64,000 nt of DNA, from the IMG/VR virus record IMGVR_UViG_3300022602_000025; one strand, written 5' to 3'. Positions 22,108 through 52,474 of the stretch are shown piece after piece. Numbering within the stretch: position 1 is the stretch's first letter; every line of letters begins with the position of its first letter. The stretch is from a virus. Lineage: Duplodnaviria; Caudoviricetes. The notes beneath the pieces are model-generated. The model was not told the DNA's origin and ran no database searches. It worked only from the letters and a program-made list of their open reading frames with translations. The translations under genes and the position numbers were made by a program.

Positions 22108-25100
22108 ATGGCCGTAGGTCGCATTACGGGGCCAATGCTTGCGGATAACCTTATCCGTAATGGCGTTGACCTAGCATTTGAAACTAATTTATTATTCCTT
22201 GACGTCATTGATGGCCGCATTGGTATCAGTACCGCGACTCCGCAATACCAATTAGATGTTAACGGCACAGCCGCACTACAAAATCTAATTGTTCCACAAA
22301 AATCAACCCTAGCGAATTTTGTAATTACAGGTAGCAGTATCACTAATACTGTTGGTGATGTATTCATCTCTGCAGGACCTGAAGGGAAAATTCGTTTACA
22401 AAATTCAGTAGAAGTTACTGGAAATATCCACGCTACTGGAAACATTACAGCAGACGGTAATGTACAAATTGGTAACATTACTGGTACAGATACTGTTAGC
22501 GTATTCGCTAACTTTACATCAGATCTTATTCCACAAACACCTGATAATTATAATCTAGGTAGTGCAGATAAGACATGGGCTAACGGTTATTTTAATAACG
22601 TAGTAGCTGATTCAATATTAGGATTCACCGGCCAAGAAATTAACATTGGTCAAAAACTAGACCGCACAGGTAGTGATATCAATGTAGGTCCTATTGTTAA
22701 TCCAACAATTAATTTAAATGGTCCTGTACGCATTTGGGGAGATAATCCACTAGGTACAAGTCCAACAGTTTCAAATATTTTATATGTTAGCATGGACGGC
22801 GACGACACTAATGATGGTCGTGCTGCAGATGCTAGCCGTGCTTGCCGTACAATTGGCGGAGCAGTAAAATCTCCTTACTACAAATACGGTACAAGTATTA
22901 AAGTTGCACCAGGTCACTACTACGAAAATAATCCAATTGAATTAAAACCTTATACTTCAGTTATCGGTTCTGACTTGCGTACAACAAGTATTGAGCCAAT
23001 TAATAAGACTCAAGACTTATTCCATGTGCAATCAGGTAACTATCTTGCACAGATGCAGTTCTTAAACGGTCAATCAGGTTTATTACCTGGTCCTGGTTAT
23101 ACTCCAGGCACTAACCGTGGCGCATACTGTGCGGCGTTTCCACCTAACTATGGCGGAACAAAGATTGACGTATTCCACTCACCATATATTCAAAACTGTA
23201 CAAACCAATCTGGTCCATGGTTAATGGATGGAACAATGTTCTTTCCTAACTCTACAGTACAGCTTCCAAGTGCAGTAGGTACAGGTACATGGGCGATTAA
23301 TACTACATCAATTACAGTAAGTGTTAGTGAAGGAACAATCCAAGTTGGGCATTCAGTAAACGTTGGCCCAACACCTCAAGATTATGTAAATGCAAGAACA
23401 TTACTGTTAGCTAACTTACCTTTCTTCCAAGAACAAGTAATTGCGTATGTCGATGAAAATAATACTTTGTTTGGGTACAACAAAGAAAATTGCATTAGAG
23501 ATACTGGACTAATCATCGACAGTATGGTTGCTGACTTAGTGTTTGGTGGTAACGGATATACACAAAGCAATTTTGCAGGTTTACAATATTGGAGCCAACA
23601 AGGATATACAGGACAAATTGGCAACGAGTTATCGACTACAACAAATGCTCTAAGCTATGTACAAATTTTAGCAGAAAAACTCGTTGCTAATAATACAAGC
23701 GGTCCTCGCTATCAATCAACACTAACACAGACATTAGGTGTGGCGTCAACACAGTCTGCGGCAACTATCGCTAGTGAATTTACAACTATTATTAATATTT
23801 TAAATTCAGGTACTGTAGGCGTAACAGATCAAATTGTTTCAAATGGCATAACAGTTGTTTCAGCTGACGCACAAAACGCATTTAACACTTTACAAGCCAA
23901 CAAAGCATATATCCAAGCAGAAGCGGTTGCGTATGTTAACGCAGCTAATCCTGGATTTGTTTATGATCAAACAAAATGCTACCGCGACATAGGATATATT
24001 ATTGACAGCGTATCATTTGATATTCTTTACGGTGGCAATCGCCAAGCGATTCAAAGTGCTGTTTTATATTATGGATACTCTGACACTGACAGCATTGTTG
24101 CTTCAGAAGCACCACAAGTAACTGCGGCTTATTATAGAATTAAAGATATTGTATCACAAATTGTAATCAACCAAGTTATTACAAAATCAGAAGGTAACCT
24201 TAGCTCACAGAATACTAGCTTACCATCGGCTACAAGTAGTGAAGCACAGACATTACAGTCAATGGTTAATTTAATTACAGAAATTATTAACGCTGGTCCT
24301 AATTCTGCATTAACTCTTAAACCAATTAGTGTAACTAAGTCAGCTAACACTAACATCTTAAATGCGGCTGCTATTTTAAGAGCTAACAGAGCATTTATTA
24401 TCACGGAAGTAATCAGCTACGTTGATCAATTCTATAATAATAAGTTTGCTTACAATGAACCTAAATGCTATCGTGACACTGGATTGATTGTTGATTCTAT
24501 CGCGATGGACATATTATATGCAGGTGATAGTCAGACTACATTTGCAGGCTTGCAGTATTGGAATCAAGACTTAGGCTATACAGGTGCCATTGGTGCAGAA
24601 ATTACAACTACAACTAATGCGATCCAATACCTAAAACAACTTGCTCAATCAATTATTGTTAATGCAACAGGTACAACTTATCAAAATACAGTAACGCAGA
24701 TATTAAGCAGTGCTGCTACCGTGGCAGAACAAGTTACTGTTGGTAAAGAATTTGATTACATTATAAACATTTTGAATACTGGAACAGCAGGAGTAACAGA
24801 CTCCATAGTTCCAAACGGTATAGCAACAACTTCAACAAATATTCTAAATGCTTACAGCTTGCTACAAGCAAACAAACCATTTATGCAAGCAGAAATTGTT
24901 GCATGGGTGGCTGCAAACAATCCTGGATTTGACTATAATCACGCAACATGCTATCGCGATGTAGGATACATTATTGACAGCATCAGTTTTGACCTTGTTC
25001 ATGGAGGTAACCGCCAAGCCTTCCAAGCAGGTGTTTACTATTATTCGTACGATGCTAATTCAACAGCGGTACCAAACGAAGTTCCTCAAGTAGTCGCGGC

Positions 25101-28100
25101 ATACGATCATATTAAAAATATTATTGGAAAAATCCTAACTGGTCAAACTGTTAATCCAACAACAGGAAATACTTCTACACAAGTTACTGCGCTGTCAACA
25201 GCAAGCTCTGGAGTAGTTACAACAGCTTACGGTTTAATTGATAATATCACAAACATTATTAATAATGGCCCTTCAGTTGCCGGATCTAAAACTCCAATTA
25301 GCCTAACACCAAGTGTTGATCCTAACACAGCGTATGCTTACAACATGTTGATGGCTAACAGAGCATTTATACAAGCAGAAACTATTGCTTACACTAACTT
25401 GTTTAATCAAGGCTTTGTCTATAACCGAGCAAAATGTAAACGAGATATTGGTCTTGTTGTTGAAAACATTGCCTATGACGTTGCCTTTGGTGGAAATGCA
25501 AAAACTGTTGAAGCAGGTCTTGCTTATTGGAATGGTGTAACAAGTTATATTCCAAACGAAATCACAACAACTACAAATGCCTTTACATATCTAGGGGAAC
25601 TTGCGGTTGATGTGTTAGCCAATGTTACAGCAACTAATTTATTAAACACATATCAAACAGCACCACAAGTTATTAACTATGTGTTGACTAATGGTTCAAC
25701 AGCCGCACCGTTAGTAACAAAACTAATTGGTGTTATGAATAATATTATTCAAAATGGTCCATCTGTGGCTCCTCCGGTACAAACAGGAAACGGACCAGAT
25801 TGGGGTTCTGTAAGTGCTGAAGTATTATTACAGGCTAACAGAAGATTTATTCAAACTGAAGTTATTAACTGGGTAGATGATAATTTTCCAAACTTTATCT
25901 ATAGAGAAGATCTATGCTATAGAGATACTGGTCTAATTATTGACGCGATTAGTCAAGACATTATTTTAAATGCTAATGCTAAATCTATTGAAGCAGGTCT
26001 TACATACTGGACCGGTGGTGTTAACTCTGTAGCTAAAGAATTAACTACAACAACAGCTGCACTGAACTACGCTAAATCATTGGCATTACAGATTATCAAC
26101 AATACCACAGTTACTACATCAGCATTTACATTTACATCTGCTAAATGTGCTCGTGACACTGGATTAATTGTTGATGCACTGGCTCAAGATTTATTATTTG
26201 GCGGTAACAGCCAAAGTACGTTTGCTGGCATCCAATATTGGAACCACGGTAATTATGTTGGAAACATTCCAAATGAAATCACAACAACAACAGCCGCATT
26301 GAATTATATCAGTAGCGTTGCTCAAAAAATTGTTCTTAATGATTTCTCAGGACCACGCTATCAAAATACAGTAACACAAGTGGCTACAGTTCCTGCAACT
26401 AACGCACAGAAATCTACAGTGGCTAACGAGTTTTCAGTTATCACAAACATTTTAACAAATGGCGTGACAGGAATTACAGATACAATTATTCCTAACGGAT
26501 TTACAGCAAACACAGATTATAATGTTGTTAATGCTTTCACAGCACTACAAAATAATAAGTCATATCTGCAAGCAGAAGTTATTGCATGGATTGAAGCTAA
26601 TAAGAGTTTCAAATATAATCAAGCAAAATGCAGTCGCGACACAGGATTGATCGTTGACAGTATTATTTTTGACTTGTTATATCCATCAACACATGGATCT
26701 AGTCAAGCAACTTTTGCGGCATTGTCATATTGGAATCAAGACAGCGGATACATTGGCTCTATTGGTAATGAGTTAACAACAACAACTAACGCAATTAATT
26801 ACGTAAGTAATCTAGCACAAGCTGTGGTTCAAAATATTACAGCAGGTACAAGATATCAAAATGCTGTACCTCAAGTTACAGGAACCGCTGCCACAACAGC
26901 TGAAGCAACAATATTACAAACAGAATTTAATTTAATTACTCATATTATTAATTCTGGAACATCTGGTGTAACTGATCTAATCGTTCCTAACGGTATTTCT
27001 GCATCAACATCTACAAACATTAATAGTGCTTATACATTACTACAAGCAAATAGAGCATACATTCAAGCAGAGGCTGTAGCATTTGTAGAAGCAACTAAGA
27101 CAGCCGGATTTGTTTACAATCCAGATACTTGCTATCGCGATGTTGGATACATGATTGACTCTGTGAGCTTTGACTTATTGCACGGCGGTAATCGTCAAGC
27201 AATTCAATCAGGTGTATACTACTATACATTTGATAGCACATCAACTTCGATTGCAGGAGAAATTCCGCAAACTATCGCAGCTTATCAATATCTTGACACT
27301 CTAGTTAAATCTATTGCACAAAATATTGTTATCACTCCTCAACAAACAGATGTGGCGCAAGTTACTACTGATTTAATAAGTGCAAATGGCTCAGTGATCA
27401 ATAGCATTGGCGCTGAAACAGATAGAATTATTAAAATTCTTGAAAATGGACCAAGCGAAGTTGCGTACAAAGAACCAATTGGACTATCTGAAACATCAGA
27501 CGGTAATTTAATCATAGCTGCAACTAACATTTTAGCTAACAAGGCATTCATCCAAGCTGAGGTAATTGCTTATATCAATAAATTCTTTGCTTTCAACTAT
27601 AATGTTGAAACATGCCAACGAGATATAGGATATATTATTGATAGTGTGAGCTTTGACTTGTTATATGGCGGTAATCGTCAAGCAATTCAATCAGGTGTAT
27701 ACTATTGGGGTTACAATAATACCAGCACAAGTTTGCCAAGAGAGCAAAATGCTTCCACACAAGCATACAATTACATGAGTCAAATTATCTCAAGTATTGT
27801 AACAGCTACACCGTTGCCACTAACTTATCAAACAGCGGTTACCCAGGTAACTAATTTACCTGCGGCGACATCAAATGAAGCAGCCTCAATCGCAACTAAT
27901 GTTGAATTAATTACTACTATCATCAATAATGGTCCTGCATCAGCACCAGCTAAGAAACCTATTGGTCTTGTACAAAGCAATAATGCGTTTGTTAATAATG
28001 CAGTTGCACTACTAGAAGCAAATAGATCATTTATACAAGCAGAGGTTATTGCGTTTGTTGATGCAACAATCGTATCTAATCAACAGGTTATTAACACATT

Positions 28101-31100
28101 CTATAACAAAGGTGCTAACGCTACATTATCTGTAACACGTAACTTTGATTTAATTACAAATATTGTTAATAACGGTCCAGGTGTTGCACCTACAAGCACA
28201 CAAGGTAACGGAATTTATAACTATACTGGTCTTGTAGGAGATGACGTAAGAATTGCTCCAACCGTAACTTCAGTAACAACAGTAACTACTGGAACATATC
28301 TAGTGACACTAAGTCAAAGTACTGTTGGTTATGGTGATAGTACTACTTTATACTTTGGTGATACACTGGTGTTCCCACTATTAGATAGTGCTATTCCAGA
28401 TCGTTGGCAACAACGCCGTATTAATCCATATGGATCTATGGGCGGTGCTCTTGTAGACGGTGCTGTAGTTTCAGCTCGTTCACCAATTAACTCTTTCGTG
28501 TTTGATGCGTTTACTCAAGTTAACCAGGGCGGTATCGGTATACACATTAACAACAACGGATACGCACAGTTAGTTTCTGTGTTTACGATCTTCTGTTCAA
28601 CCGCTGTATTAACAGAGAACGGTGGTATCGCTTCTATTACTAACTCTAACGCCAACTTTGGTGATCAATGCTTAGTATCTAAGGGCTATGGAACAAGAGA
28701 ATTTAGTGGTTACATTTATAATCCACCAGTGGCTCCATATTATCCAAACGGTGTATACCCACAGAGCGGTAGCGTGGAAGTTTATATCGCTGATCCAGGC
28801 CTACGTCCACACATTTCATTGATTATGGAAGTTGAGCCACCAGAAGGTTATAAAAACTATCAAGGACTTCCTGGTTTCTTAACAGGTAATACAAACATCG
28901 GAGTTCTTACAACAGGAACAATTTTAATTACTGGTATTGATAATACAGGAATGGTTGTAGGTCAAAGTTTCTATGTAGTTGACCAATACGGTCTCCAAGT
29001 AGATGCAAATAACCAACCTTATGTAACTCCTGGTACAATCGTTGCTGATGTAGCGTATCAAAGCGTTACACTAAATTATCCATTGAATAGTGGTGGTGGC
29101 GATCCTAATAACAGTAACTACTTCAATCTATATACATCTGGTAATGCGTACTACACAGTACTGTCAAGTACTGTAGCACCAGATCCAATTACTCCAGGTA
29201 CACTATTGCTTCCAGGAGTACAAAATCTTCAAGAAGATGTGGCATTAGGATTCTTAGGAACATTAACTTCTTATATTATTTCTAATACTCCTGTAACTCC
29301 ATTGCAAACAGCAACTACACAAGTGTACGACTTGAGTTTAGTCGGTGGTGCAGGTGCAGAATCATTCATTGTAAACGATTTAAACATCATCGGTAGTATC
29401 TTAGTAAACGGATACTCAAGTGCTCCAACAGTAACAACTAGTGGAACATTACCAACAGGTGCATCACAAGCGGCCAGCTTGTTAAATGATAACCGTGCGT
29501 TCATACAAGATGAAGTAGTACAATACATTAATAACACATATCCGCCATTCACATATAATCAACAAACTTGCTACCGTGATACAGGATTGATTGTTGATGC
29601 TATTGCACAAGACTTATTATTCTTAACAGATAGCCAATCAACATTTGCTGGTATCCAATACTGGAATCAAGTAAGTTACACTGGTGCTATTGGTTCAGAA
29701 ATTACTACAACGACAGCTGCGATTTCTTATATTAAAACATTATCACAACAGGTAATTCAAAATATTACTGGTGGTACTCGTTATGGTACAGAAACACAAA
29801 TTACAGGTATCGCAGGAACTATTGATGAATCTAACACTATTGGTGCAGACTTTGATTTAATATTATCAATATTAAACACAGGTACAGCTGGTGTAACAGA
29901 TTTAATTGTCCCTAATGGAATCACAACAAGCACTAATGCCAACGTGGTTAACTCATATAACTTGTTGCAAGCTAACAGACAGTACATCCAAAGTGAAGCT
30001 GTTGCGTTTGTTGAGTCAACTAAGACTCCTGGATTTGCATACAATACAGCAACTTGCTATAGAGATGTAGGATACATCATTGACTCTGTAAGTTTTGACT
30101 TGTTATATGGCGGCAACCGTCAGGCAATTCAAAGTGCTGTTTACTATTACGGTTACAGCACAACTTCAAGTTCAGTATCAAATGAGCTACCAGAAGTAAC
30201 AGCGGCATATCAACACCTAAGCATTATTGCTGATCAAATTATTAGAGGCGAGACTGTAACAACATATCAATCAACTGTTACACAAATTGCATACTTACCA
30301 AAAGGTACAAGTGCAGAATCAACTATTGTTGCTGACAGACTTAATTTGATTACTAATATTATAAACAATGGTCCATATGTTGTCAACGGTCCGTTGCCAG
30401 TAACAACTTGCACAGACATCAACGCTGTAAATTCAGCTATGATGATTGAACAAAATAGAAACTTTATTATTGCTGAAACAAATGCGTATATCAATAGTGC
30501 GTTCCCAGGATTTGTATACAACACAGCAACATGCTCACGTGATACAGGATTGATTGTTGATGCGATCGCACAAGACTTAGCGTTTAACAGCTTCAGTCAA
30601 ATTTATTTTGCAGGCGAACAGTATTGGAATCACAACGGATACGTTGGTGCTATTGCAAGTGAACTAACAACTACTACAGCCGCTATCAACTACGTTAAAA
30701 ATCTAGCACAGAAAATTGTGTTGAACGATACATCTGGTCCACGTTATCAGTCAATCGCAACTCAATCTACATCATTAAGTCCTGCAACATCAGCAGAAGC
30801 ATCTGCGATTGGCGCAGACTTCAATGTTATTCTACAGATTCTAAACACAGGAACAAGCGGTGTAACAGATTTAATTGTACCAAACAGCTTAACTCCGAGT
30901 GGAAGTTTCAACGTTAATGTAGCATTTGAAAACTTGCAAGCAAACAAAGCATATATCCAAGCAGAAGCAGTTGCGTATGTTGACGCAATTAAATCTAGTG
31001 GATTTAATTACAATTCAGAAACATGTTATCGCGATGTTGGATACATGATTGATGCAATTAGTATTGACTTATTATACGGTGGTAATCGTCAAGCTGTACA

Positions 31101-31971
31101 GGCAGGTACTTACTACTATGGATTCAATGCAAGTTCAACAGCATTACCCGGTGAACAAATACAGGCAGTGGCTGCGTACAACTATATTAAATCAATATTG
31201 CCAAATATTGTAGAAGGTGTTCCACTACCATCAACATACCAAGGAACAGTATCACAAGTAACTAGTGGCACTCCTGGTAATGTTGAATGGGCAGAAGTTG
31301 CACAAATTAACGTTGATATCTTGACAGGTATTATTACTAATGGTCCAAAAGCACCATTACCTAAGAGACCAATTAACTTGAACATGAGTTCAACTCAGTC
31401 AGTGATTAATGCAGCCGCAATACTAAAAGCCAACAGAACATTTATGCAAGCAGAAACTATTGCATATATCAACAAAGCATTTGGTTCATACAATGTAGCA
31501 AAATGTAAACGTGACGTTGGATTAATCGTTGATGCCCTAGTATATGATTTAGCTAATGGCGGAAACTACAATGCGGTTGTTGCAGGACAAAGCTATTATG
31601 CTACTCATGGCACACATCATATTGTTAACTTAGAAGAAGCAGTAACTGATCCAGGATTATTCCCAGACGGTGCTATTATTAATTTCTATCAACGCTCATA
31701 TCAATCAGCTTCTGGTTACTTGTTTGAGTATGTAGGTGCTGGTACAAACTACGGTGCTTTACCGCAAAGAGGTAAAGCTGACGTTGTTCAAACAAAAGAA
31801 ACAATTCAGTTGAACAACGGTAAGGTGTTCTTTACATCAACTGACCAAAACGGTGACTTCCGTATTGGCCCAGGATTGGTAATTAGCCAGGCAACTGGTG
31901 TGTTATCAGGAAGAACATTTACAAAATCATTATTTGCGAATATGACTCCGTTCATATTGGCAATTGAATAA
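22108..31971 (+). CDS. Giant virion-associated protein: beta-helix scaffold carrying 15 phycobiliprotein/globin-like repeats
   Basis: 3287 aa. [8 protein letters not shown].NDG...IKVAPGHY.E suggests a pectate-lyase-like beta-helix start. It has 15 C-x-R-D-[TIV]-G repeats. Confidence 0.75.
   Translation: [3287 protein letters not shown]
23491..31520 (+). repeat. 15 protein-level repeats centred on C-x-R-D, mostly about 480-500 nt apart, in two arrays (10 and 5)
   Basis: Cys codons at 23491, 23977, 24466, 24949, 25435, 25915, 26146, 26629, 27130, 27613 and at 29569, 30055, 30532, 31024, 31504. Confidence 0.9.
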
Positions 31972-50302: not shown

Positions 50303-52474
50303 ATGTCAACAAACTTAGGAAAAGTTCGATACAATTTTAAAGGTCAGTGGGTAAGTACAACAGCTTATTTGGTTAACGATATCGTCAACTACAAGCAACG
50401 TGTTTATCGTTGCATCACAGCAAATACAAACTTAGTTCCTTTATCTTACATTGGTTCTTATTGGGAGCTTAGCCTAGGCACATTTGAAGATCAGGGTTTA
50501 TATAACAATAGTACACAATATTATGTGGGTGATATCGTTACAGTTGATAACTCTCCTACAGTTAACGCAGGTGTCGGTGGTTATACCGGTTCGCCGAGAC
50601 AGTTTGTTTCAACGACTACAGACGGTGCGTACCTATCAAATCCTATCAACGTTTATATCTGTATTGCAAATACCTTAGGAAATGCACCAGCGAACCCTAG
50701 TTCAGGTGGTACAGCATATTGGCAACCAATGAGTATGAGCGGCCAATACGGTAGAAATAATAAAGCATTCGCATGGAACTCAAATAGAGGCTATGTACCT
50801 GCAGGAATTTATACTAACACAGCAAATCAAGGTTGGCCTCCAAACGGTGCTCGTCCGGGGGATAGTTATCAGGACGGCGGATTAGGTCATGCCAAAGATG
50901 GTCAGATCTGTTTCCATGCTAGTTTCATTACTCGTAACGGTGGAGTTATTAAGTGGGGTCGTTCAGATTCAGGAAGCCAAGGTAACGGACAGAACAACTA
51001 TCAGATGTCATTGAGTGAATTAAATTTTGCTTTCAATGAATGGTACGATAATACACTACCTACTCCAGACGGTCTTGCACCTAAGGCAGTACAGTACGAA
51101 GAAGGTTATCAAAACAATCTAGTGTTGTTTAACAACGGCGAAGTTTACGCTTGGGGTTACAATGGTCACGGACAGGGTGGATTTAACTCAACAGCGGCCA
51201 ACCAATATCCAATGCGTGTTGGTAACAATAACAACACAACAATTTTAAGAGGTGTTAAGGCGGTTCGTATCGCTTCAACACACGTCGGCGGCCAAACAGC
51301 TACCGCATGTTCACATTATATTTTAACTTCAAGCGGTACTATATATTCTTGGGGTTACAATGGCTACGGCCAGCTTGGTACAGGTAACACAACAAACTAT
51401 TATGTTCCTACCTTAATTTCAACAGGTGGCCTAAACGGTACTCCTACAGATATTTGGGCATGTGGCGGTGACTACGGCCACTTGTATGTATTAACTAGCA
51501 ACGGATACATGTATGCCTGCGGGTACAACGGTTACGGAGAATTAGGTGTTACCGGTACAACTAACCAATCATTACTAACGTATGTTAACAGAACATGGGG
51601 CACAGGCACTGGTAAGATTAGAAAATTCATAATAGCGGATCGTCAATCAGCCAGTTGGTGTGCTGTATTAGATGCATCAGGATCAATATGGACATGGGGT
51701 TGGAATGGTTATGGGCAATTAGGATTTGATAATACAACAAACTTATCTTCGCCAACACAGATCACATTCCCATTCTCAACAGGTTGGACAAATATTTGGG
51801 CTGGAGCAGGTGCATACCCTAACTTGTGGGCAACAAACTCAAATGCTGCCAATACGACATGGCCAGGATATTCTAACTCAACTAACGCACTTTACTCATG
51901 CGGATACAACGGTTACTATAACCTAGGTCGCTTAGTTACAGTTAACTCAAACTTAACACATGCTAACAACGGTGCATCTGGTTCAGGTGTGCAGTACGAT
52001 ACCTATCGTCTACAACAGGTAAACGTAGAACAACAAAGCGGAACTTCTCCTTACTATCAGATCGTTACTAACGTTTTTAACGTAACTAACTGGGGTAACG
52101 GAGATAATAGCCACCAAGGAACATTGATAGAAACTACTGCTGGCGTAAAATACTACCTAGGATATAACGGTTACGGACATGCGGCATTTGGTCACACTGA
52201 TTCATACCTAGCACGTACACGTGATAGTATTGGTAACGTAGCAAACAACCTAGGTAAACGTTTACGTTATACACCTCCTGGGTTGAACGAACAAGATTTC
52301 TTTATCGTTACTCCTGTAGGTTGGACAAACTATTTTGGTGCTCTATGGGCAGACAAATATGGTTATGTTTACTTTAGTGGTGGCGGAAGCACAGTAGCTT
52401 GGTCAAGTAGTATGGTTGACGTAACTAACCAAACAACTTGGCTAGGAACATTTGGAAAAATACCGGAGTCTTAA
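50303..52474 (+). CDS. RCC1/BLIP-II-like beta-propeller protein with N-terminal CBM5/12-like motif
   Basis: Repeated (Y/W)SWGYNGYGQLG blades; KGQW...Y..NDIV.Y. Confidence 0.85.
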   Translation: MSTNLGKVRYNFKGQWVSTTAYLVNDIVNYKQRVYRCITANTNLVPLSYIGSYWELSLGTFEDQGLYNNSTQYYVGDIVTVDNSPTVNAGVGGYTGSPRQFVSTTTDGAYLSNPINVYICIANTLGNAPANPSSGGTAYWQPMSMSGQYGRNNKAFAWNSNRGYVPAGIYTNTANQGWPPNGARPGDSYQDGGLGHAKDGQICFHASFITRNGGVIKWGRSDSGSQGNGQNNYQMSLSELNFAFNEWYDNTLPTPDGLAPKAVQYEEGYQNNLVLFNNGEVYAWGYNGHGQGGFNSTAANQYPMRVGNNNNTTILRGVKAVRIASTHVGGQTATACSHYILTSSGTIYSWGYNGYGQLGTGNTTNYYVPTLISTGGLNGTPTDIWACGGDYGHLYVLTSNGYMYACGYNGYGELGVTGTTNQSLLTYVNRTWGTGTGKIRKFIIADRQSASWCAVLDASGSIWTWGWNGYGQLGFDNTTNLSSPTQITFPFSTGWTNIWAGAGAYPNLWATNSNAANTTWPGYSNSTNALYSCGYNGYYNLGRLVTVNSNLTHANNGASGSGVQYDTYRLQQVNVEQQSGTSPYYQIVTNVFNVTNWGNGDNSHQGTLIETTAGVKYYLGYNGYGHAAFGHTDSYLARTRDSIGNVANNLGKRLRYTPPGLNEQDFFIVTPVGWTNYFGALWADKYGYVYFSGGGSTVAWSSSMVDVTNQTTWLGTFGKIPES

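Follow-up and report, generated by a model that had tools for sequence, protein, structure and literature searches.

A 64,000-nucleotide stretch of IMG/VR record IMGVR_UViG_3300022602_000025 (Caudoviricetes), referred to here as the window, contains a giant open reading frame (ORF), P0001, whose product is predicted to be a virion fibre and carries 15 copies of a globin module homologous to phycobiliproteins. Each copy retains a CxRD motif, the chromophore motif of phycobiliproteins and of the globins BBAG-1 and BBAG-3, the latter two of which attach bilins without lyases (PMC10151467). We regard the homology of the fold to phycobiliproteins and the virion-fibre context as settled. The evidence also tilts, on balance, toward modules that carry a covalently bound bilin.

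Fifteen CxRD modules in one polypeptide

A regular-expression search (C.RD) located 15 CxRD motifs in the 3287-residue protein, against a chance expectation of 0.02 from its composition. The motif cysteines are residues 462, 624, 787, 948, 1110, 1270, 1347, 1508, 1675, 1836, 2488, 2650, 2809, 2973, and 3133, exactly as listed in an earlier sequence-only reading of this DNA, which counted them as 15 of about 21 cysteines; the direct count is 21. The Cys-to-Cys spacing of 159–167 residues inside two arrays, with a single 77-residue step, was likewise as that reading gave it. Alignment of the 15 units yields a mean column identity of 47%, with C46, R48, D49, G51, D60, Y76, and E89 invariant. Two subtypes alternate in part, an 'L' type (CxRDTGLI...QYW...TTTT) and a 'Y' type (CxRD[IV]GY...GGNRQA...YYY).

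The modules adopt a phycobiliprotein-like globin fold

A single repeat was modelled by AlphaFold2 (AF2) without templates, using the 15-row alignment of repeats as input. The resulting model contains six helices (predicted local distance difference test score, pLDDT, 86.8; predicted template-modelling score 0.83), and Cys2650, residue 46 of the model, lies on the long helix E. In a Foldseek search of the PDB all of the top 50 matches were phycobiliproteins, with template-modelling (TM) scores of 0.61–0.69. The VIA structure search (all against representatives) placed phycobiliproteins or ApcE in its first eight positions (Z 12.9–15.0, 117–145 residues aligned), led by phycoerythrin, allophycocyanin, and the bilin domain of ApcE, with photocobilin (11.8) and sensor globins (~11) behind; a search of AFDB clusters returned generic sensor-globin rows only. 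The globin or phycobiliprotein-like fold proposed by the sequence-only reading is thus borne out by the model confidence and by both the Foldseek and VIA rankings.

Sequence profiles point to the same family. The whole protein scores 34.3 bits (E 2.9e-8) against Pfam PF00502 (Phycobilisome protein), for which the gathering score is 22.2 bits, and the anticipated profile match is therefore present. A profile of the 15 repeats searched against 177,635 PDB sequences matched phycocyanin alpha chains and nothing else (E 0.013), and a profile of 111 repeats from 111 proteins gave 30 matches at E<1, 29 of which were C-phycocyanin alpha (best E 0.0045). In the HMMER alignment, positions 11–66 of the 111-repeat profile fall on CpcA 38–104, with CxRD on K-C-[AV]-R-D and GG on GG. 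The earlier claim of block similarity to phycocyanin alpha stands with respect to register; one indel lies between helix B and the Cys, which confines the gap-free match to the individual blocks. Sequence identity between repeats and phycobiliproteins is only 14–22%. The matches begin at PF00502 position 27 and at residue ~25–43 of the phycobiliprotein chains, from which we conclude that the N-terminal X-Y hairpin is missing from the repeat; the unit is also too short to hold it.

The phage modules therefore share with C-phycocyanin alpha, phycoerythrin, allophycocyanin, and ApcE a globin-type fold that runs from helix A/B through helix H and a helix-E CxRD in register with Cys84/Arg86/Asp87, followed by a GG turn. 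They differ in lacking the X-Y helices, which serve alpha-beta monomer and trimer assembly, in occurring as a maximum of ~40 tandem copies per polypeptide in a virion fibre, in many cases in phages without psbA, and in sitting in a structural gene module, whereas phycobiliproteins are encoded in a phycobilisome operon. The BBAGs, phycobiliprotein paralogues outside light harvesting, share CXRD with the phage modules (BBAG-1 and BBAG-3) and occur in genomes with heme oxygenase and ferredoxin-dependent bilin reductase (FDBR) genes, often those of non-photosynthetic organisms (PMC10151467). They are cellular proteins of one domain, found in clusters that include V4R and Fe-S proteins, whereas the phage module is found only in tandem within giant ORFs; this comparison rests on the published description of BBAGs and not on their sequences. 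Photocobilin and photoglobin domains (8j2w, 8j2y) are also bilin-binding globins, but they match at Z 10.6–11.8, below the phycobiliproteins. They have no CXRD, their biliverdin is bound non-covalently, and they occur as fusions to B12 domains.

Domain layout and virion context

The features of the giant ORF, as delimited by family hidden Markov model (HMM) domains, motif positions, and recurrence among 151 family representatives, are as follows.

22108..31971, + strand: giant ORF P0001, tail-fibre-like virion protein of 3287 residues (PHROG and Pfam matches)
22108..23370, + strand: N-terminal domain, residues 1–421; recurs in 66 of 151 family representatives
23371..27960, + strand: Array 1, ten CxRD globin modules, residues 422–1951, Cys 462–1836 (family HMM domain table and motif positions)
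27967..28203, + strand: Cys-less module fragments, helix-B-like plus helix-H-like, residues 1954–2032 (family HMM domains 11 and 12)
28204..29220, + strand: central all-beta domain, residues 2033–2371 (~340 residues); recurs in 76 of 151 representatives
29221..29433, + strand: partial module, helices G-H, residues 2372–2442 (family HMM domain 13)
29452..31647, + strand: Array 2, five CxRD globin modules, residues 2449–3180, Cys 2488, 2650, 2809, 2973, and 3133 (family HMM and motif positions)
29920..30408, + strand: modelled repeat, residues 2605–2767, six-helix phycobiliprotein-like globin (AF2, Foldseek, VIA)
31648..31968, + strand: C-terminal domain, residues 3181–3287 (107 residues); recurs in 122 of 151 representatives

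The 77-residue step in Array 1 corresponds to two partial modules in the family HMM (residues 1233–1338 and 1338–1463), and the fifth module of Array 2 ends early, after helix G. Pfam and PDB sequence searches with the N-terminal domain gave no significant match; its residues ~220–400 look to us like the start of a beta-helix, an unconfirmed reading of our own. The central domain is possibly a tailspike-like beta-helix, although its AF2 model reaches a pLDDT of only 55.7 and tailspike matches are weak (E 0.02–0.2, TM about 0.2). A 'split beta-helix' made of the N-terminal and central parts is likewise unconfirmed, with no match to either in Pfam or PDB sequence searches. The C-terminal domain resembles the C-termini of the PHROG tail-fibre families phrog_3442 and phrog_17885.

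The protein matches the PHROG families phrog_5342 (tail fiber, E 3.5e-144), phrog_4527 (4.7e-135), and phrog_701 (2.1e-74), and the PHROG labels of family proteins are tail fibre, short tail fibre, and virion structural protein. Upstream of the giant ORF lie genes for a late sigma factor, SbcCD, the portal, and the major head protein, and downstream are more giant structural ORFs. These PHROG matches (best E in the 1e-144 range) and the place in the structural module uphold the proposed phage appendage, and the ORF is accordingly predicted to encode a virion fibre, its presence in the virion being assigned by annotation. Within the run of large structural ORFs is also a 723-residue ORF (window positions 50303–52474, + strand) that matches the PHROG annotation 'regulator of chromosome condensation' (RCC1-like) and the tail-protein family phrog_20500. 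Outside the window, the same record contains a second giant ORF (G000:C1:112909-126603, + strand; 4565 residues) without the CxRD globin repeat.

The IMG/VR record of the phage spans 151 kb and is estimated to be 43% complete. Its major head protein shares 68–69% identity with its counterparts in the ~350-kb jumbo phages GAP32, Serratia BF, CBB, Vibrio 2.275.O, and Sinorhizobium Phosso, and 79–88% with those in uncultured genomes of 345–400 kb, many from freshwater lake metagenomes. No psbA was found in 20 long repeat-bearing contigs or in five near-complete genomes. With psbA missing in its relatives and a GAP32-like capsid, the phage is not a typical cyanophage; judged by these markers, its source is a freshwater jumbo myovirus, as yet uncultured, with a genome of ~350 kb.

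The CxRD globin repeat defines a large phage-only family

A profile search of 1.84 billion representatives recovered 1446 proteins at E<=0.001, 627 of them at E<=1e-30. Many members are 2000–6400 residues long, with a maximum of 39 matched stretches in one protein, and the N-terminal, central, and C-terminal domains recur in the family with a variable number of modules between them. More than 590 IMG/VR stretches contain the repeat. The most extreme array seen belongs to a complete 400-kb relative (G083), with 43 repeat matches, mostly in one 6682-residue frame (C1:103919-122833, + strand).

Among 50,697 isolate phage records searched by tblastn, the repeat was present in 53, all Synechococcus or Prochlorococcus myoviruses; megablast of the giant ORF DNA against isolate phages gave no match. 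A structure search of viral models retrieved proteins of S-PM2, S-ShM2, S-WAM2, S-CAM1, and Syn30 and the S-SCSM1 'long tail fiber', the same protein set as tblastn. The sequence-only reading had surmised that similar repeats sit unannotated in structural proteins of aquatic myoviruses, and they do, in S-PM2, Syn9, P-HM1/2, S-WAM2, and others. These giant proteins (S-PM2 YP_195253, S-WAM2 AOV61722/AOV61784, Syn9, P-HM1/2, S-RSM4) contain the same CxRD globin module in ORFs of 3000–7300 residues that bear the annotations tail fibre, tail protein, or structural protein, with 3–13 copies per genome. Their modules are only 22–30% identical to those of the window phage. These cyanomyoviruses infect cyanobacteria and carry cpeT, whereas complete members of the jumbo lineage carry the heme oxygenase gene hemO and FDBR and neither cpeT nor psbA. 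In S-PM2 (NC_006820, 165928-177267), 16 tRNA features under locus tag S-PM2t009 are placed inside the coding sequence of a 3779-residue 'short tail fiber protein', which looks like an annotation coordinate error.

A scan of cellular genomes with the repeat pattern found 15 loci only, all on aquatic metagenome-assembled genome (MAG) contigs, and matched neither an isolate genome nor a true phycobiliprotein gene. The MAG bins that hold these contigs span Sphingobacteriaceae, Rhodobacteraceae, Flavobacteriales, Euryarchaeota, and Verrucomicrobiales; the contigs are probably mis-binned phage, and their taxon labels are unreliable as evidence of hosts. The CxRD globin repeat is therefore a large phage-only family.

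The CxRD triad is conserved, and lost, as a unit

Conservation was evaluated in ~1555 repeats drawn from the 151 best-scoring of the 1446 proteins. Although mean column identity across family proteins is 25%, the motif C, R, and D are kept in 95%, 96%, and 98% of repeats, respectively, D60 in 99%, and Y76 in 98%. RD is kept in 98% of Cys-bearing repeats as against 46% of Cys-less ones (odds ratio 60, p 6.5e-37, a p-value that is indicative only, as repeats are not independent samples). D60 is retained in 66 of 67 Cys-less repeats. The loss of C, R, and D together while D60 and the fold stay suggests that the triad is a single functional unit with which the module can dispense, as would be expected of a ligand site.

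Bilin-synthesis genes accompany the repeat in jumbo phages

Among the five most complete repeat-bearing contigs, three have adjacent hemO and FDBR genes (G014, 100% complete; G018, 100%; G002, 65%). The cassette lies 16–165 kb from the fibre gene and does not adjoin the globin gene. Relatives of the jumbo-phage FDBR occur in at least 535 IMG/VR stretches. When FDBR-bearing contigs of at least 60 kb were considered, the repeat was present in 9 of 19, including all four that are at least 94% complete and one that is 61% complete (G082); the repeat-less ones are all fragments of at most 34% completeness. Each of seven near-complete uncultured genomes examined contains both the repeat and an adjacent hemO-FDBR pair, and none has psbA. 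The capsid protein of the source phage is 79–88% identical to those of one lineage of these genomes but only 38% identical to that of G014, which therefore represents a second lineage with repeat and hemO-FDBR. The cultured jumbo relatives with 68–69% capsid identity have neither repeat nor FDBR.

Phage hemO-FDBR cassettes in phages of non-photosynthetic hosts have been described as 'still enigmatic', with BBAG globins mentioned only as a possibility, in a 2024 paper on the Shemin pathway (PMC11480375). The jumbo-phage FDBR is closest, at 49.8%, to that of Pelagibacter phage Mosig, a carrier of hemO and pcyX. In Mosig (MT647606, 35653-44261), hemO and a pcyX-like gene stand directly upstream of neck and tail-sheath-stabiliser genes and are preceded by ferrochelatase and four 2-oxoglutarate-Fe(II) oxygenase genes. 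In the jumbo relatives (G018:C1:2500-10500; G002:C1:44000-52000), hemO-FDBR directly follows Hsp20-like and ClpS-like ORFs, and in G018 a full DnaK gene (631 residues) adjoins the run, which looks like a chaperone/adaptor-plus-bilin cassette. The generalisation that every hemO-pcyX phage carries this acceptor was considered and rejected on the unfiltered six-frame search of Mosig, in which it proved repeat-less.

The repeat co-occurs with cpeT in cyanomyovirus isolates

Co-occurrence with the gene for the lyase-like protein CpeT was scored in 16 named isolates, a portal-based IMG/VR sample having given almost only fragments of 4–40 kb.

Repeat and CpeT (10 isolates): P-HM1, P-HM2, S-PM2, S-WAM2, Syn9, S-RSM4, P-SSM4, Syn19, S-SM1, P-RSM4
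Repeat without clear CpeT (1 isolate): P-SSM7
CpeT without repeat: 0 of 16 isolates
Neither repeat nor CpeT (5 isolates): P-SSM2, S-SM2, S-SSM7, Mosig, P-SSP7

The association gives a Fisher p of 0.0014 over the 16 isolates and of 0.005 over myoviruses only with P-HM1/2 merged, values that ignore shared descent. The two genes are also close together: cpeT lies 1.3–3 kb upstream of the giant repeat ORF in S-PM2, S-WAM2, and S-RSM4, which represent three genera. The repeat ORF adjoins gp12-like short tail fibre genes in S-PM2 and S-WAM2 and in S-PM2 is also downstream of gp5. Gasper et al. reportedly found in 2017 that the CpeT of P-HM1 forms a tight complex with phycoerythrobilin yet does not pass the bilin on to the host beta-subunit. 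In P-SSM4, a 148-residue ORF (NC_006884, 16642-17064) passes the Pfam CpeT cut-off; a 2010 review reports cpeT as absent from this phage (PMC2984593).

Published adsorption experiments offer a further point of comparison. P-HM1 and P-HM2 fail to adsorb without light, and S-PM2 shows light-dependent adsorption that is independent of host photosynthesis, whereas darkness does not prevent adsorption of P-SSM2 and P-SSP7. Receptors or tail fibres that sense light have been suggested to explain this, with no candidate named (PMC6628666). The repeat, with intact CxRD, is present in S-PM2, P-HM1, and P-HM2, and there is none in P-SSM2 or P-SSP7. With five phages, effectively four, this is a small correlative hint of light-gated adsorption, which the sequence-only reading had named among possible roles; it is a lead and not a result.

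Do the modules carry bilin?

Covalent bilin binding is favoured by the in-register triad, its extreme conservation and its loss as a unit, the lone Cys in each module, and the hemO-FDBR and cpeT associations. Several observations weigh against it. Despite many purifications, we know of no report of a pigmented cyanophage virion. Single repeats fall below the PF00502 cut-off (best 17.1 bits, with weak matches in 5 of the 15), and phycobiliprotein pocket residues beyond CxRD and the GG turn are not recognisably kept. Neither the 64-kb window, as the sequence-only reading had correctly stated for synthesis and lyase genes, nor the whole 151-kb record, 43% complete, contains a gene for heme oxygenase, FDBR, CpeT, or CpeS; the flanks of the cassette in the closest relative are also missing from the record, which therefore does not cover the cassette region. 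FDBR was found in no more than 4 of the 64 contigs with the repeat, the majority of which are small fragments, where random placement of the cassette predicts ~15.8; we do not read this as absence, because the cassette-fibre distance of 16–165 kb exceeds the length of most contigs. Mosig contains no repeat in six frames searched with two profiles and filters off, and in P-SSM2, which has FDBR, the repeat was not found; phage bilin genes therefore do not need this acceptor. Among the isolates, P-SSM7 has the repeat without clear CpeT, the p-values for co-occurrence take no account of shared descent, and the three myoviruses that lack both repeat and cpeT may form one clade. T-type lyases, moreover, normally serve Cys-153 and not Cys-82.

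The main alternative, which is possible though we think it rather unlikely, is that the modules are purely structural spacers, descendants of a phycobiliprotein- or BBAG-like globin that lack a chromophore and act as rigid helical beads setting the length of the fibre. Conservation of C, R, D, D60, and Y76 would then reflect their part in folding, in contacts between modules, or in a disulfide or metal site. Such a role fits the variation in module number among homologues with the same terminal domains: the N-terminal and central domains can be separated by as few as 2 modules or by more than 10, one protein has 39 matched stretches, and one genome has 43 matches. It also fits the retention of D60 in Cys-less modules, which suggests a structural residue, and the bilin genes without repeat in Mosig and P-SSM2. 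One free Cys per module, 95% conserved, in a Cys-poor extracellular protein (15 of 21 cysteines) would nevertheless be unusual for a spacer, and C, R, and D vanish as a unit while the fold persists. The CxRD is in register with the bilin site, and a spacer leaves the co-occurrence with hemO-FDBR and cpeT and the cpeT synteny unexplained.

Binding of another ligand, whether heme, non-covalent biliverdin, or a host surface molecule, by modules that serve as receptor-binding or sensing units appears improbable. In the structure search, sensor globins and photocobilin rank next after the phycobiliproteins (Z 10.6–11.8), BBAG-2 binds biliverdin without CXRD (PMC10151467), and the protein falls in tail-fibre families; however, none of the near-invariant columns (C, R, D, D, Y) offers a conserved His as a heme ligand, and the conserved triad is that of covalent bilin attachment. 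Least credible, and in our view very improbable, is a chance resemblance between helical bundles with CxRD of independent origin. Individual E-values against PDB sequences are indeed marginal (0.0045–0.013), and helical models often reach a Z of about 13 by chance. On the other side, the PF00502 cut-off is passed, 29 of 30 PDB sequence matches belong to one family, phycobiliproteins come first in two structure searches that match nearly the whole domain, and the motif is in register.

A proposed biliprotein fibre

Under the favoured reading of covalent bilin binding, the fibre would consist of conserved N-terminal, central, and C-terminal domains with two arrays of ~160-residue helical modules between them, the modules being homologues of phycobiliproteins and of the BBAG bilin-binding globins without the X-Y helices. 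During infection, a linear tetrapyrrole would be joined to the motif Cys of each module through a thioether. In the jumbo lineage, phage hemO and a PcyX/PcyA-like reductase would make the bilin, and its attachment, as in BBAGs, would need no lyase; in cyanomyoviruses, host or phage would supply the bilin and phage CpeT would assist its attachment. Once assembled, the fibre would bear a row of chromophores, and its length would be set by the variable number of modules.

The purpose of such a pigment is the least certain step, and the most attractive reading is that light sensing would gate adsorption. The fibre would in that case be a true biliprotein and a virion-borne photoreceptor, switched by absorbed light to an adsorption-competent state. 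We put this forward as a speculation that is more likely wrong than right. A photoreceptor fibre would explain the photosynthesis-independent, light-dependent adsorption of S-PM2 and P-HM1/2. It would also account for the presence of cpeT in phages, and of hemO-pcyX/pcyA cassettes in those whose hosts are non-photosynthetic bacteria.

Full-text literature searches returned no account of a phage structural protein with domains that resemble phycobiliproteins or bind bilins, and the fibre arrays appear to be a bilin-binding-type globin in a radically new architecture and setting. The family forms a large phage-borne branch of the phycobiliprotein/BBAG globins, the origin of which is debated (PMC10151467). 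Should the modules carry bilins, the fibre would be the first virion structure to bear a chromophore, and three matters would become testable: why phages with non-photosynthetic hosts have hemO/reductase genes, what CpeT does in cyanophages, and why some cyanomyoviruses adsorb only in the light. The modules may attach bilins to themselves, which would make them a possible source of small fluorescent tags. Even without pigment, a light-harvesting fold put to new use as the repeating unit of fibres that run to thousands of residues is a notable example of domain exaptation.

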